Shown: positions 8,533 through 13,113, numbered from the stretch's first letter. The stretch is 64,000 nt of DNA from Escherichia coli (GCF_044647545.1 NZ_CP172818.1); one strand, 5' to 3'. Made by a program: numbers and translations. Notes: generated from the sequence alone by a model not told the origin.

Positions 8533-9138
8533 ATGACGCTCTACCAGATAAAACCGCTCTTTCAGTCGCTGTTAAGGCCGACGATGTTTTGGCTTTATAA
8601 GCACCACGTTACAGCGAATCACATCACTCTTGCTGCACTGGCGCTTTCTCTTCTTACCGGATTGCTGTTGATGTTGGTGGCACAACCCATCCTCTTTTTG
8701 CTATTGCCTATCGTGCTTTTTATCCGTATGGCGCTCAATGCGCTGGATGGCATGTTGGCGCGTGAGTGCAATCAGCAAACACGTCTGGGGGAGATTTTGA
8801 ATGAAACTGGCGATGTTATTTCCGATATTGCGCTCTATTTACCGTTTTTATTTTTACCGGAAAGTAACCCATCACTCGTAATACTCATGTTATTTTGCAC
8901 CATATTGACTGAGTTTTGTGGTTTACTCGCGCAGACGATTAACGGTATTCGCAGTTTTGCCGGTCCATTTGGCAAAAGCGATCGCGCGTTAATATTTGGT
9001 CTGTGGGGGCTAGCCGTTGCCATTTATCCACAGTGGATGCAATGGAATAATCTTTTATGGGGCATTGCTTCAATTCTGCTTATCTGGACTGCGATTAATC
9101 GTTGTCGGAGTGTGCTCCTGATGAGTGCTGAAAGATAA
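8533..9138 (+). CDS. ynbA: CDP-alcohol phosphatidyltransferase family membrane protein
   Basis: 201-aa hydrophobic ORF from the ATG at 8533 carrying a D-G-x2-A-R…G…D-type motif; stop overlaps the ynbB start (TAATG). Confidence 0.8.
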   Translation: MTLYQIKPLFQSLLRPTMFWLYKHHVTANHITLAALALSLLTGLLLMLVAQPILFLLLPIVLFIRMALNALDGMLARECNQQTRLGEILNETGDVISDIALYLPFLFLPESNPSLVILMLFCTILTEFCGLLAQTINGIRSFAGPFGKSDRALIFGLWGLAVAIYPQWMQWNNLLWGIASILLIWTAINRCRSVLLMSAER

Positions 9139-10034
9139 TGATGGAAAAATCTCTGGCAACACTTTTCGCGTTGTTAATTTTAGCAACGCTGATAAACCGT
9201 TTTCGGGTATGGCGGTTACCGGAGAGAAAAGGGGATGAAGTTACATTACGTATTCGTACCTGGTGGGGCATCGTCATTTGTTTTTCACTGGTGATTTCAG
9301 GTCCACGCTGGATGACGTTGACGTTTTTTGCGCTGATAAGTTTTCTGGCATTGAAAGAATATTGTACGCTTATATCCGTACATTTTCCGCGTTGGTTATA
9401 TTGGGGTATTCCTCTTAACTATTTGCTTATCGGTCATAATTGCTTTGAGCTGTTTCTGTTATTTATACCTTTGGCTGGGTTTCTGATATTAGCCACCTGG
9501 CAAGTTTTTGTGGGTGACCCCTCCGGTTTTCTGCATACAGTGAGCGCCATTTTTTGGGGCTGGATAATGACCGTTTTCGCCTTGAGTCATGCCGCCTGGT
9601 TATTAATGTTGCCAACCATAAATATCCAGGGCGAGGCGTTACTGGTGTTATTTCTTTTGGCATTAACCGAGTCAAACGATATTGCACAGTATTTATGGGG
9701 AAAATCCTGCGGCAGAAGAAAAGTGGTCCCCAAAGTCAGCCCGGGAAAAACGCTGGAAGGTCTGGTGGGGGGCGTAATCACCACCATGATTGCGTCACTA
9801 ATTATTGGACCGTTGCTGACACCGCTAAATACATTACAGGCATTATTAGCGGGTTTGTTAATTGGTATTAGTGGTTTTTGCGGCGATGTAGTGATGTCAG
9901 CCATCAAACGAGATATTGGTGTTAAAGATAGTGGAAAACTATTACCAGGACATGGCGGACTCCTTGACAGGATTGACTCATTAATTTTCACCGCTCCGGT
10001 ATTTTTTTATTTTATTCGCTACTGCTGTTACTGA
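9138..10034 (+). CDS. ynbB: CDP-diglyceride synthetase (CdsA) paralogue, membrane protein
   Basis: 298-aa hydrophobic ORF with a CdsA-like C-terminal signature (…KRDIGVKDSGKLLPGHGGLLDRIDS…). Confidence 0.8.
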   Translation: MMEKSLATLFALLILATLINRFRVWRLPERKGDEVTLRIRTWWGIVICFSLVISGPRWMTLTFFALISFLALKEYCTLISVHFPRWLYWGIPLNYLLIGHNCFELFLLFIPLAGFLILATWQVFVGDPSGFLHTVSAIFWGWIMTVFALSHAAWLLMLPTINIQGEALLVLFLLALTESNDIAQYLWGKSCGRRKVVPKVSPGKTLEGLVGGVITTMIASLIIGPLLTPLNTLQALLAGLLIGISGFCGDVVMSAIKRDIGVKDSGKLLPGHGGLLDRIDSLIFTAPVFFYFIRYCCY

Positions 10035-10049
10035 AGGAAAATAGAGAAA

Positions 10050-11807
10050 ATGGAAAATTCACGCATCCCTGGGGAACATTTTTTTACCACCAGTGATAAT
10101 ACAGCGTTGTTTTATCGGCACTGGCCCACTTTACAGCCGGGTGCGAAAAAGGTCATCGTCTTATTTCATCGTGGCCATGAACATTCTGGTCGTCTACAAC
10201 ATATCGTTGATGAACTGACAATGCCAGATACTGCTTTTTATGCCTGGGATGCCCGAGGGCATGGAAAAACGTCAGGGCCGCGTGGTTATAGCCCATCTCT
10301 TGCGCGTTCAGTGCAGGATGTCGATGAATTTGTCCGTTTTGCTGCCAGCGACAGCCAGGTTGGACTGGAAGAGGTGGTTGTGATCGCGCAAAGCGTCGGC
10401 GCAGTGCTGGTTGCCACATGGGTTCATGATTATGCGCCTGCTATTCGCGGGCTGGTGCTGGCTTCTCCGGCCTTTAAGGTTAAATTGTATGTGCCGCTGG
10501 CACGTCCTGCGCTGGCGTTATGGCATCGTCTGCGTGGTCTGTTTTTTATTAATTCCTATGTGAAAGGACGCTATTTGACCCACGATCGGCAACGGGTGGC
10601 GAGTTTCAATAATGATCCGCTGATCACACGGGCGATTGCCGTTAATATCTTGCTCGATCTTTATAAAACGTCTGAACGTATTGTTAGCGATGCGGCGGCG
10701 ATTACGCTCCCCACGCAACTTCTGATATCAGGCGATGACTATGTGGTGCATCGTCAACCGCAGATTGATTTTTATCAGAGATTACGTAGCCCTCTGAAAG
10801 AGCTGCATCTGCTGCCAGGCTTTTATCACGACACGTTGGGTGAAGAGAACAGGGCGCAGGCATTTGAAAAAATGCAAAGCTTTATTAGTCGTTTATATGC
10901 TAACAAGTCACAAAAATTTGATTATCAGCATGAAGACCGCACTGGACCATCAGCGGATCGCTGGCGGCTCCTTTCAGGTGGACCCGTGCCATTATCGCCG
11001 GTTGATTTGGCGTATCGCTTTATGCGTAAAGCGATGAAATTGTTCGGGACGCACTCTGCGGGCCTGCATCTCGGAATGAGCACCGGCTTTGATTCAGGCA
11101 GTTCGCTGGATTATGTCTATCAAAATCAACCGCAAGGTAGTAACGCATTCGGGCGCTTAATCGACAAAATCTACCTGAACAGTGTTGGCTGGCGCGGTAT
11201 TCGCCAGCGCAAAACCCATTTACAAATACTGATTAAACAAGCCGTTGCCGATCTCCACGCCAAAGGTTTAGCCGTCCGCGTGGTTGACATTGCCGCAGGG
11301 CATGGGCGCTATGTACTGGATGCGCTGGCAAACGAGCCTGCCGTAAGCGATATTTTGTTACGTGATTACAGCGAGTTAAATGTTGCACAGGGGCAAGAGA
11401 TGATTGCTCAACGGGGAATGTCTGGGCGGGTGCGTTTTGAACAGGGCGATGCGTTTAACCCGGAGGAACTCAGCGCGTTAACTCCGCGGCCTACGCTGGC
11501 GATTGTCTCTGGCCTGTATGAGCTTTTTCCCGAAAATGAGCAGGTAAAAAACTCCCTCGCAGGTCTTGCCAATGCCATCGAACCGGGTGGCATTCTCATC
11601 TACACCGGGCAGCCGTGGCACCCACAACTGGAGCTGATTGCCGGGGTGTTAACCAGTCATAAAGATGGTAAACCGTGGGTAATGCGCGTGCGTTCTCAAG
11701 GAGAGATGGATTCGCTCGTGCATGATGCCGGATTTGATAAATGCACACAACGGATTGATGAGTGGGGCATTTTTACGGTTTCGATGGCGGTGCGTCGTGA
11801 TAACTGA
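10050..11807 (+). CDS. ynbC: Two-domain protein: alpha/beta hydrolase (lysophospholipase-like) fused to a putative SAM-dependent methyltransferase
   Basis: 585-aa ORF; hydrolase nucleophile elbow (…IAQSVG…) in the N-terminal half, methyltransferase-like C-terminal half. Confidence 0.8.
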
Positions 11808-11820
11808 ACGCCGGAACGTA

Positions 11821-13113
11821 TTGCTACAAGGAGCTGGCTGGTTATTGTTGCTGGCCCCGTTTTTCTTCTTCACCTATGGATTTCTTAATCAGTTCACCGC
11901 GACTCAGGATCTTAACAACCATGATATCCCCAGTCAGGTATTCGGTTGGGAAACGGCGATCCCTTTTCTTCCCTGGACTATTGTTCCTTACTGGAGTCTG
12001 GATCTTATATATGGATTTTCGCTGTTCATTTGTAGCTCGACATTCGAACAGCGCCGACTGGTTCACCGGCTTATTCTGGCAACGGTAATGGCCTGCTGCG
12101 GTTTTTTTCTCTATCCGCTGAAGTTTAGTTTTATCCGTCCTGAAGTGAGTGGGGTGACAGGATGGCTATTTTCGCAACTTGAACTGTTTGATCTGCCTTA
12201 TAACCAGTCTCCTTCGCTGCATATTATTCTCTGCTGGCTACTTTGGCGTCACTTTCGTCAGCATCTGGCTGTGAGGTGGCGTAAAGTCTGCGGCGGATGG
12301 TTTTTACTCATCGCCATTTCGACGCTGACGACCTGGCAGCATCATTTTATTGATGTCATCACAGGGCTGGCAGTAGGTATGTTAATTGACTGGATGGTGC
12401 CCGTCGACCGTCGTTGGAATTATCAGAAACCTGATCAACGTCGAATCAAAATAGCACTGCCATATGTCGTAGGCGCGTGCTCGTGCATTGTGTTGATGGA
12501 GCTAATGATAATGCTTCAGTTATGGTGGTCAGTCTGGTTATGTTGGCCAGTATTATCGCTATTCATCATTGGTCGTGGGTACGGTGGGCTTGGCGCGATA
12601 ACAACAGGGAAAGATAGTCAGGGGAAACTCCCGCCCGCCGTTTACTGGCTGACATTGCCCTGGCGTATCGGGATGTGGCTGTCTATGCGTTGGTTTTGTC
12701 TTCGCCTGGAGCCGGTGAGCAAAATTACTGCTGGTGTTTATTTAGGGGCGTTTCCACGACATATTCCGGCACAGAATGCGGTTCTGGACGTCACCTTTGA
12801 ATTCCCTCGCGGACGAGCCACAAAAGATCAACTCTATTTTTGTGTACCGATGCTGGATCTGGTGGTTCCGGAAGAGGGGGAGCTCCGACAGGCCGTGGCG
12901 ATGTTGGAAACATTACGCGAAGAGCAAGGCGGCGTTCTGGTCCATTGCGCGTTGGGATTATCGCGCAGTGCGCTGGTGGTGGCGGCATGGCTGTTATGTT
13001 ACGGACATTGTAAAACCGTTGATGAAGCGATTAGTTATATTCGAGCCAGACGCTCGCGGATTGTGCTTAAGGAAGAGCACAAAGCGATGCTGAAATTATG
13101 GGAAAACAGGTAA
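11821..13113 (+). CDS. ynbD: Membrane PAP2-like domain fused to a dual-specificity phosphatase domain (HC-x5-R motif)
   Basis: Frame is open from 11722; the TTG at 11821 would give 430 aa (a GTG at 11797 is an alternative); catalytic [10 protein letters not shown] motif near the C-terminus. Confidence 0.7.

Follow-up and report, generated by a model that had tools for sequence, protein, structure and literature searches.

The ynbABCD operon of Escherichia coli may be a reduced, intact and normally silent form of a cassette of four to six genes that is widespread in bacteria and builds a private, low-abundance glycerophospholipid, to be used on the outer side of the inner membrane; we give this reading an even chance. 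In each of the four proteins the domains identified and their intact catalytic residues speak for a lipid cassette; that ynbABCD has never been linked to a lipid product counts against it. A preliminary description of this DNA had proposed a dedicated route based on CDP-diacylglycerol (CDP-DAG), in which a phosphatidyl group is transferred to an alcohol and the product is dephosphorylated. The YnbB active site, the phosphate pocket of YnbA, a PTPMT1-like phosphatase domain in YnbD and gene fusions all favour such a route, but not in that simple form.

Within the window, a 64,000-nt stretch of the E. coli chromosome (NZ_CP172818.1), positions 8533–13113 contain ynbA, ynbB, ynbC and ynbD, all on the plus strand, with a 100% match in several genomes. 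ynbA (8533–9138) encodes a 201-residue membrane protein of the CDP-alcohol phosphotransferase superfamily with a variant active site; ynbB (9138–10034), a 298-residue paralogue of the CDP-diacylglycerol synthase CdsA; ynbC (10050–11807), a 585-residue fusion of an α/β hydrolase and a class I SAM methyltransferase; and ynbD (11797–13113), a membrane PAP2 domain resembling sphingomyelin synthase (SMS) and IPC synthase, joined to a dual-specificity phosphatase (DSP) domain predicted to be cytoplasmic. Pfam matches bear out the four domain architectures of the preliminary description, and the genes are as tightly joined as it had stated. At the ynbA/ynbB junction (gaaagaTAATGatg), the ynbA stop codon and the ynbB ATG share a single A (TAATG); ynbB and ynbC are 15 nt apart, with AGGA inside the gap; and ynbD could start either at a TTG at 11821 (430 amino acids), 13 nt past the ynbC stop, or at a GTG at 11797 (438 amino acids), overlapping ynbC by 11 nt. 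The GTG form is the RefSeq annotation in a K-12-like genome and agrees with the conserved N-terminal T-x-R-R of the orthologues. All four open reading frames are full length compared with orthologues, and dN/dS values of 0.16–0.32 (against the K-12-like allele) indicate purifying selection. At least 80% of 8533–13113 is present in 4,283 of 5,426 complete E. coli genomes; the intact operon is missing from 12–21% of complete genomes and kept in at least 79%, with insertion sequences or deletions disrupting it in some strains. These features are not a chance pattern.

The profile match (Pfam PF01066, CDP-OH_P_transf; 2.8e-9 over residues 27–174) and full-length homology place YnbA among the CDP-alcohol phosphotransferases; it aligns with Mycobacterium tuberculosis PgsA1 (PDB 6h53) over residues 11–191 (2.8e-7). 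The canonical signature of these enzymes, D1-x2-D2-G-x2-A-R-x8-G-x3-D3-x3-D4, carries four aspartates that bind two metals. In YnbA (8737–8826, plus strand; translation NALDGMLARECNQQTRLGEILNETGDVISD), the corresponding stretch reads N69-x2-D72-G-x2-A-R77-x8-G86-x3-N90-E91-x2-D94-x3-D98: D72, G73, A76, R77, G86 and D94 are retained, and two of the four aspartates are asparagine, N69 at D1 and N90 at D3, the positions held in PgsA1 by the metal ligands D68 and D89, the latter bridging. Asparagine occupies position 1 in 131 and position 3 in 130 of 132 representatives of the YnbA family. Because the substitution is conserved across the family, it does not reflect decay, and YnbA therefore belongs to a variant subfamily rather than to the canonical enzymes. 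The invariant residues K148, R151 and R190 line up with R152, R155 and R195 of PgsA1; in the M. tuberculosis phosphatidylinositol-phosphate (PIP) synthase these basic residues hold the acceptor's phosphate (PMC6506517), and judged from the alignment the corresponding pocket of YnbA is intact.

YnbB retains the active site of CdsA. It matches Pfam PF01148 (CTP_transf_1; 6e-69) and, compared with Thermotoga maritima CdsA (4q2g), keeps GD...SAxKRxxGVKDSGxxLPGHGGxLDRxD, both dyad aspartates included. Profile, family signature (S-x-x-K-R-x4-K-D-x-G-x2-L-P-G-H-G-G-x-x-D-R-x-D) and Asp–Asp dyad thus identify it as a phosphatidate cytidylyltransferase, and CDP-DAG synthesis by YnbB in vitro has been reported (PMC7018664; activity also PMC6362211). 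It is the sole enzyme of the four to have been studied.

YnbC joins a monoacylglycerol-lipase-like hydrolase (about 10143–10847, plus strand; Pfam Hydrolase_4, PF12146, residues 32–266, 1e-67) to a methyltransferase (about 10872–11795, plus strand; Methyltransf_20, PF12147, residues 275–582, 2e-152), and the two are fused in all 45 orthologues. The hydrolase matches the M. tuberculosis monoglyceride lipase Rv0183 (6eic; 1e-15) and has a Ser–Asp–His triad with its serine in a nucleophile elbow (Q-S115-V-G-A, D230 and H260) that is at least 95% conserved in these orthologues, as are D413xAxGxG and D439 of the methyltransferase. A Rossmann-like fold (model pLDDT 91.5), motif I (D-x-A/G-x-G-x-G) and the acidic motif II residue mark the latter as a class I SAM enzyme; a fold search returned generic matches only. 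The lipase-like domain with its intact triad recalls the acyl remodelling of the Lands cycle, as does the PlsC/Aas-like acyltransferase of the full cassette. The YnbC hydrolase, however, is always joined to a methyltransferase of the otherwise uncharacterized PF12147 family, and E. coli lacks the cassette acyltransferase.

The DSP domain of YnbD (12736–13107, plus strand; Pfam DSPc, PF00782, 3e-26) contains the phosphatase motif noted previously, ten residues encoded at 12940–12969. Its H-C-x5-R-(S/T) P-loop, upstream general-acid aspartate and fold are those of a dual-specificity phosphatase, with the C-X5-R site and general acid intact, and the mitochondrial phosphatidylglycerophosphate (PGP) phosphatase PTPMT1 is among its closest structures. 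The membrane domain (plus strand, up to about 12690) had been called PAP2-like and matches PAP2_3 weakly (3e-4). Its motifs follow the PAP2 pattern in part: C1 has an invariant R106-P107, but no conserved Lys and a shorter spacing than K-x6-R-P; C2 reads P-S-L-H134 instead of P-S-G-H, with Tyr in Snodgrassella; and C3, S167...H174-x3-D178, lacks the Arg of S-R-x5-H-x3-D. The best structural matches are the head-group phosphotransferases SMSr and Aur1, which are nearer than pyrophosphatases. Sphingomyelin synthase, SMSr and Aur1 share S-x-H and H-H/Y-x2-D motifs with YnbD and have a non-cytoplasmic active site, as predicted here, whereas identity is only about 13–14%, YnbD is a bacterial protein with a cytoplasmic DSP domain attached, and ceramide is absent from E. 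coli. By positive-inside analysis the H-H-x2-D motif is predicted to lie across the membrane from the K/R-rich loops and the DSP domain, so that the membrane domain's active site probably faces the periplasm, with the DSP domain in the cytoplasm. A scheme of synthesis followed by dephosphorylation is therefore too short.

The YnbA family occurs at no fewer than 576 loci in a species-representative genome set, and the cassette is present in Pseudomonas, Rhizobium, Campylobacter, Bacteroidetes and others. In about 80 genomes its parts are linked by conserved neighbourhoods and by gene fusions, including Rosetta-stone fusions of YnbA with YnbC (807 amino acids) and with the acyltransferase (436 amino acids). 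Among 56 YnbA loci with full flanks, YnbA is accompanied by YnbB and the acyltransferase in 18, by both of these together with YnbC and YnbD in 24, and by YnbC and YnbD in 8. Two further genes, one for a small membrane protein and one for a PlsC-like acyltransferase, are carried by Citrobacter, Hafnia and Serratia, and Citrobacter has them at the chromosomal site that ynbABCD occupies in E. coli; both are absent from the entire E. coli window. The ancestral cassette has six genes, of which the E. coli version lacks these two, and the pathway cannot be called complete, as it had been; the E. coli version may therefore be partly disabled. Many genomes have YnbA, YnbB and the acyltransferase without YnbD, so that dephosphorylation by a DSP domain is not a universal step; other genera have YnbA, YnbC and YnbD without YnbB or the acyltransferase, for which housekeeping PlsC and CdsA presumably substitute. 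Across 80 loci the cassette has no conserved neighbour that would supply a head-group precursor, and the acceptor should therefore be a common metabolite.

On the reading we favour, YnbB would turn phosphatidic acid, supplied elsewhere by the cassette's PlsC-like acyltransferase, into a local pool of CDP-DAG, a reaction shown in the literature. YnbA would then move the phosphatidyl group onto a common phosphorylated acceptor, using an N-x2-D...N-x3-D site instead of D-x2-D...D-x3-D, and the cytoplasmic DSP domain of YnbD may, by analogy with PTPMT1, remove the acceptor's phosphate. The lipase- or lysophospholipase-like esterase of YnbC could edit an acyl chain, and its methyltransferase could methylate either the head group or the lipid itself. 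Once the lipid had been flipped, the YnbD domain that faces the periplasm would either transfer the phospho-head group to a different molecule of the envelope or cleave it off with release of diacylglycerol. In published work BglJ–RcsB turns the operon on, which lacks a strong constitutive promoter, and cold induces at least ynbB. Besides the missing product, this reading has against it the asparagines at two metal-ligand positions of YnbA, its lack of an R94 equivalent, the silent ynbB knockout, the loci without YnbD and the two genes missing in E. coli.

The published work on YnbB concerns the glycolipid MPIase, whose synthesis it supports as an auxiliary enzyme (PMC6362211, PMC7018664, PMC11413397). 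We considered whether ynbABCD is a back-up MPIase route, in which YnbB makes CDP-DAG, YnbA rather than YnbB condenses it with GlcNAc-1-phosphate to GlcNAc-PP-diacylglycerol, and diacylglycerol pyrophosphate, left over once the glycan has been transferred, is dealt with by the YnbD PAP2-like domain. As a genuine CdsA paralogue and reported CDP-DAG synthase, YnbB agrees with the CdsA/MPIase pathway of Nishiyama and co-workers; its overproduction raises MPIase and, on CdsA depletion, restores MPIase but not bulk phospholipid; and cold induces ynbB together with cdsA (PMC6362211, PMC7018664, PMC11413397). Furthermore, ynbA is translationally coupled to ynbB, the change of two carboxylates to amides in YnbA would reduce charge repulsion for a phosphate nucleophile, and lipid pyrophosphates are the usual substrates of PAP2 enzymes (PMC7413402). 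However, the published model assigns the condensation to CdsA and YnbB themselves; the MPIase literature consulted for YnbB does not mention YnbA and reports no MPIase role for YnbA, YnbC or YnbD; and a ynbB knockout alone has no lipid or MPIase phenotype, its MPIase level being unchanged (PMC6362211). The cassette also occurs in the bacteria listed above, where MPIase has not been described, the scheme leaves the lipase–methyltransferase and the DSP domain without a role, and the YnbD membrane domain lies nearer to SMSr and Aur1 than to pyrophosphatases. We consider this route unlikely.

It is similarly improbable that the E. coli operon is a silent evolutionary remnant, without a product since the loss of the acyltransferase and small membrane protein genes that Citrobacter, Hafnia and Serratia retain. 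A consensus scan of the 170-bp ydbD–ynbA intergenic region (8363–8532, plus strand), which contains the ynbA promoter and is identical to the K-12-like allele at 160 of 170 bases, found no match to a canonical σ70 promoter; a Shine–Dalgarno sequence, AAGGA, precedes the ynbA ATG. BglJ–RcsB activates the mapped promoter from a site centred 65–68 bp upstream of the start (PMC3950696). According to published work, BglJ–RcsB is itself silenced under laboratory conditions. This dependence, the two missing genes, the absence of a phenotype in single knockouts and the disruptions in some strains would suit a remnant. By contrast, the four reading frames are intact with every catalytic residue conserved, dN/dS is well away from the value of about 1, most complete genomes keep the operon, expressed YnbB is active, and genera with YnbA, YnbC and YnbD apparently manage with housekeeping PlsC and CdsA.

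The chemistry implied by the preliminary description, a redundant phosphatidylglycerol branch in which YnbA would make PGP as PgsA does and YnbD, through its DSP domain, would be the PGP phosphatase, seems to us quite unlikely. It follows the same logic as PgsA with PgpA/B/C or PTPMT1 (CDP-DAG to phosphatidyl-alcohol-phosphate to dephosphorylation), and PTPMT1 demonstrates that a DSP fold closely matching that of YnbD can serve as a PGP phosphatase; YnbA also matches the PgsA model weakly and has the conserved phosphate pocket, and the lack of a precursor gene would suit a universal acceptor such as glycerol-3-phosphate. YnbA, however, is only remotely PgsA-like, scoring 29.9 bits against the PgsA model TIGR00560, below its cut-off of 109.1, and lies nearer to inositol-phosphate-using synthases. 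Overexpressed YnbD rescues neither a conditional pgpA pgpB pgpC strain nor one deficient in C55-PP phosphatases (PMC7413402), which tells against such a branch. Moreover, PgsA and PgpA/B/C have no counterpart of the lipase, methyltransferase and SMS-like activities, which, like the family-wide change in the metal site, plain phosphatidylglycerol would not need.

A more speculative and very unlikely possibility is that the YnbA family forms a new class of CDP-DAG-dependent transferase whose N-x2-D...N-x3-D site fits an anionic (phosphate) nucleophile. Its products would be glycolipid anchors in which diacylglycerol is linked through pyrophosphate, for instance GlcNAc-PP-DAG, the first MPIase intermediate; the lipase–methyltransferase and DSP domains would tailor the lipid, and the SMS-like PAP2 domain would recycle or transfer the head group after use at the periplasmic face. 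If so, many bacteria would possess a carrier cycle like that of undecaprenyl pyrophosphate but based on diacylglycerol.

The synthesis of (archaetidyl)inositol phosphate followed by a PIP phosphatase resembles the proposed pathway in that YnbA is homologous over its whole length, shares D2, G, A, R, G, D4 and the phosphate-holding basic residues, and is encoded together with a phosphatase; here that phosphatase is a DSP joined to a membrane domain, and asparagine replaces aspartates 1 and 3. A phosphatidylinositol-type pathway (PIP synthase, PIP phosphatase and IPC-synthase-like phosphoinositol transfer) is nevertheless highly unlikely: among NCBIfam models YnbA scores best with archaetidylinositol-phosphate synthase (72.9 bits), followed by PIP synthase (43.8 bits; models NF045883 and NF040950), its best solved homologue is the M. 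tuberculosis PIP synthase, the equivalents of R155 and R195 are invariant and the YnbD membrane domain resembles the IPC synthase Aur1, but both scores fall far under their cut-offs (180 and 170), PgsA1 R94, conserved in inositol-phosphate users, is V95 in YnbA, the 80 loci show no conserved gene for an inositol-phosphate synthase around the cassette, and neither inositol lipids nor an inositol-1-phosphate synthase are known from E. coli.

Downstream, a hairpin with an 11-bp stem (13123–13152; −26.3 kcal/mol, z = −5.65 against shuffled sequences) lies between the convergent ynbD and azoR genes. It has no T-tract on either side and was for that reason missed by the terminator scan; it likely marks the end of the operon.

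Phospholipid synthesis in E. coli is held to be essentially solved, and ynbABCD (8533–13113) encodes an extra CDP-diacylglycerol (CDP-DAG) branch with an unrecorded product. The locus belongs to the known 'y-genes', and one of its members has been studied; as a whole, it is an uncharacterised variant of CDP-DAG-dependent lipid synthesis in which several unusual features are conserved. The open reading frames place ynbA at 8533–9138, ynbB at 9138–10034, ynbC at 10050–11807 and the end of ynbD at 13113. The first two genes are joined through TAATG, and a 15-nt spacer containing AGGA separates ynbB from ynbC. 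The start of ynbD differs among RefSeq records, being TTG at 11821 in FDAARGOS_497 (430 aa, leaving a 13-nt gap after ynbC) and GTG at 11797 in a K-12-like genome (438 aa, overlapping ynbC by 11 nt). We prefer the GTG because the 438-aa form is the RefSeq form in the K-12-like genome and recovers the N-terminal M-T-x-R-R common to YnbD orthologues; genes then overlap at both ynbA/ynbB and ynbC/ynbD. A further in-frame ATG lies at 11722. Together with Pfam searches, which confirmed the domain architectures of all four proteins, these boundaries and junction sequences bear out the gene set, TAATG junction, close spacing and architectures reported in the preliminary description.

The active site of YnbA, the committed enzyme, is unusual. 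In an alignment to the PIP synthase of M. tuberculosis (PgsA1; 6h53), YnbA reads N69-x2-D72-G-x2-A-R-x8-G-x3-N90-x3-D94, with asparagine in place of aspartates 1 and 3 of the CDP-alcohol phosphotransferase signature, and on sequence grounds it is a non-canonical member of that group. In PgsA1, D68 and D89 stand at the positions of N69 and N90; both are ligands of Mg-1, and D89 is also a ligand of Mg-2, so that within one chain it links the two metals (PMC6506517). Among 132 family sequences (E. coli YnbA and 131 representatives of clusters at ≤50% identity), asparagine occupies signature position one in 131 and position three in 130; given this family-wide conservation, the changes do not reflect decay. 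D72 and D94 are conserved as strongly as the asparagines, and E91, adjoining N90, is nearly invariant: the metal site is conserved yet non-canonical. K148, R151 and R190 are invariant and align with PgsA1 R152, R155 and R195, the residues that bind the phosphate group of inositol phosphate (PMC6506517). We infer that YnbA is probably catalytically active, as a transferase whose metal site is altered and whose acceptor is anionic and probably carries a phosphate. Our literature search found no functional studies of YnbA or YnbC.

YnbB aligns to T. maritima CdsA with its C-terminal signature intact and with both metal-binding aspartates of the dyad present. The hydrolase half of YnbC resembles monoacylglycerol lipases (1e-15 to M. 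tuberculosis Rv0183), and across 45 orthologues S115, D230 and H260 are each at least 95% conserved. In the last enzyme, YnbD, the membrane-domain residues R106-P107, S132-x-H134 and H174-H175-x2-D178 show full or near-full conservation among orthologues, and in the predicted topology the H-H-x2-D motif lies across the membrane from the K/R-rich loops and the dual-specificity phosphatase (DSP) domain, which share one face. From this conservation and opposite-side placement, we predict for YnbD a cytoplasmic DSP domain and, facing the periplasm, a domain acting as a head-group transferase or phosphodiesterase. Two lipid-phosphate active sites would thus be joined across opposite faces of the inner membrane, an arrangement that speaks for modification of the envelope or a carrier cycle and not for a bulk lipid. 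YnbD has been recognised as the fourth E. coli PAP2 protein, with no function assigned, and its overexpression failed to rescue strains deficient in either PGP phosphatase or C55-PP phosphatase (PMC7413402); our analysis accounts for the negative outcome of such simple PGP-phosphatase tests.

The cassette is no E. coli oddity, being spread through Proteobacteria and beyond. In a survey of one genome per species, the YnbA family is represented by at least 576 loci; its hosts include Enterobacterales, Pasteurellaceae, Pseudomonas, Rhizobium, Neisseria, Campylobacter, Variovorax, methanotrophs, Bacteroidetes and Acidobacteria, among others. Among 56 loci with adequate flanks, 18 combine YnbA and YnbB with a PlsC/Aas-like acyltransferase, 24 carry these three together with YnbC and YnbD, eight have YnbA, YnbC and YnbD, and one has the E. 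coli A-B-C-D layout without the acyltransferase. Rosetta fusions join YnbA to YnbC (807 aa) and to the acyltransferase (436 aa). At least 29 of 39 loci with YnbC and YnbD encode, after YnbD, a small membrane protein of 117–190 aa with the conserved motif Y-Y/F-A-x-R-x2-F-D-x2-L-F, which matched no NCBIfam or Pfam family (15182–15589, 14022–14420 and 12838–13293 in the cassette loci L004, L002 and L046, respectively, and in 17 more loci). No head-group precursor gene is conserved near the cassette. Citrobacter carries a six-gene form at the chromosomal site that the E. coli operon occupies, flanked by ydbL and azoR-hrpA, and the window holds no trace anywhere of the acyltransferase or the small membrane protein; judged by this gene content, E. 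coli has lost both. The phospholipid-type pathway proposed in the preliminary description therefore retains its likeness to CDP-DAG-dependent lipid synthesis but cannot be called complete, and the absence of two partners suggests why overexpressing only the E. coli genes could prove unproductive.

Two variants of the cassette were also observed. Some YnbA-YnbB-acyltransferase loci contain a fourth gene, whose 195-aa product is a membrane protein weakly matching a VTT/DedA-type domain (E 1.4e-3; 4338–4925 in locus L008, and also in L009, L028, L058, L066, L084 and L089); that family is tied to lipid scrambling, which would suit a lipid that needs to cross the membrane. The Vibrio fluvialis cassette (L002, 8980–14420) adjoins a resolvase gene and retains only a 130-aa N-terminal fragment of ynbB, with a YnbA still 66–68% identical to that of E. 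coli, together suggesting acquisition by horizontal transfer.

The most economical reading is that ynbABCD is devoted to making a minor lipid, with an experimental basis for the YnbB step only. The acyltransferase, lost in E. coli, would supply phosphatidic acid and YnbB would activate it, both feeding YnbA, which would join a common phosphorylated acceptor to the phosphatidyl donor. The DSP domain and YnbC would tailor the product in the cytoplasm, and the SMS-like domain of YnbD would use the tailored lipid at the periplasmic face. By published accounts, YnbB forms CDP-DAG in vitro, its overproduction raises or restores the glycolipid MPIase and not bulk phospholipid, ynbB knockout alone leaves MPIase unchanged, and cold induces ynbB along with cdsA (PMC6362211, PMC7018664, PMC11413397, bioRxiv 10.64898/2026.06.05.730299).

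The overproduction effect would suit a back-up route to MPIase in which YnbA makes its first intermediate, GlcNAc-PP-DAG; the unchanged MPIase of the knockout speaks against such a route, which we consider unlikely, although the disputed MPIase pathway gains in YnbA a concrete, testable candidate enzyme. Similarly doubtful is a functionless remnant, for a locus short of two cassette genes: dN/dS against the K-12-like allele is 0.16–0.32 for the ynbABCD genes, well below 1, and the catalytic residues are all intact, so pseudogenisation was rejected as the main reading and the four genes are, by these measures, maintained. The likeness to CDP-DAG-dependent synthesis would also accommodate a redundant PG branch, to which we give a somewhat smaller chance still; the negative complementation and the remote similarity of YnbA to PgsA led us to reject simple duplication of the PG pathway as the main reading. 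An inositol-lipid branch is the least probable, and was rejected as the main reading: the curated families closest to YnbA are indeed archaetidylinositol-phosphate and PIP synthases (PgsA being more distant), but scores fall far under the cut-offs, R94, typical of inositol-phosphate users, is replaced by valine, and a precursor gene is missing.

For the dedicated minor-lipid pathway, the induction conditions indicated are BglJ-RcsB and cold. The BglJ-RcsB heteromer activates ten promoters, that of ynbA included, and is itself silenced by H-NS under laboratory conditions (PMC3950696). Full-text searches returned nothing under ynbABCD-type operon names or PF12147/Methyltransf_20, and nothing relevant on the gene-cluster composition of the cassette. 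A consensus scan for promoters and terminators gave counts no higher than in shuffled sequence, with no promoter found in the intergenic region, and an Rfam search of 8000–14000 gave no match. Between the convergent ynbD and azoR, a very stable hairpin with an 11-bp stem (13123–13152; −26.3 kcal/mol, z −5.65) has no adjoining T-tract on either strand, and may serve as a non-canonical terminator acting in both directions or stabilise mRNA.

The window derives from the E. coli chromosome; within it, 8533–13113 is 100% identical to ynbA-ynbB-ynbC-ynbD of several strains; at least 80% of this interval is found in 4283 of 5426 complete E. coli genomes. The allele differs by about 3% from that of most E. 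coli (96.9% identity to K-12-like strains) and is shared unchanged by few strains. One strain with an otherwise identical allele has an IS3 insertion inside ynbC, and partial deletions of the interval occur in some genomes. The flanks of the window do not match those of FDAARGOS_497: an ungapped position-by-position comparison gave 1784 mismatches over 16.6 kb, and the upstream annotation of that strain was therefore not applied. Positions 1–8362 hold autotransporter or pectate-lyase-fold gene fragments (ydbA in K-12) with IS2 and IS30, followed by pdxI and ydbD (6050–8362). The ydbD gene is annotated as a DUF2773 bactofilin and has a low G+C content of 0.40–0.46.
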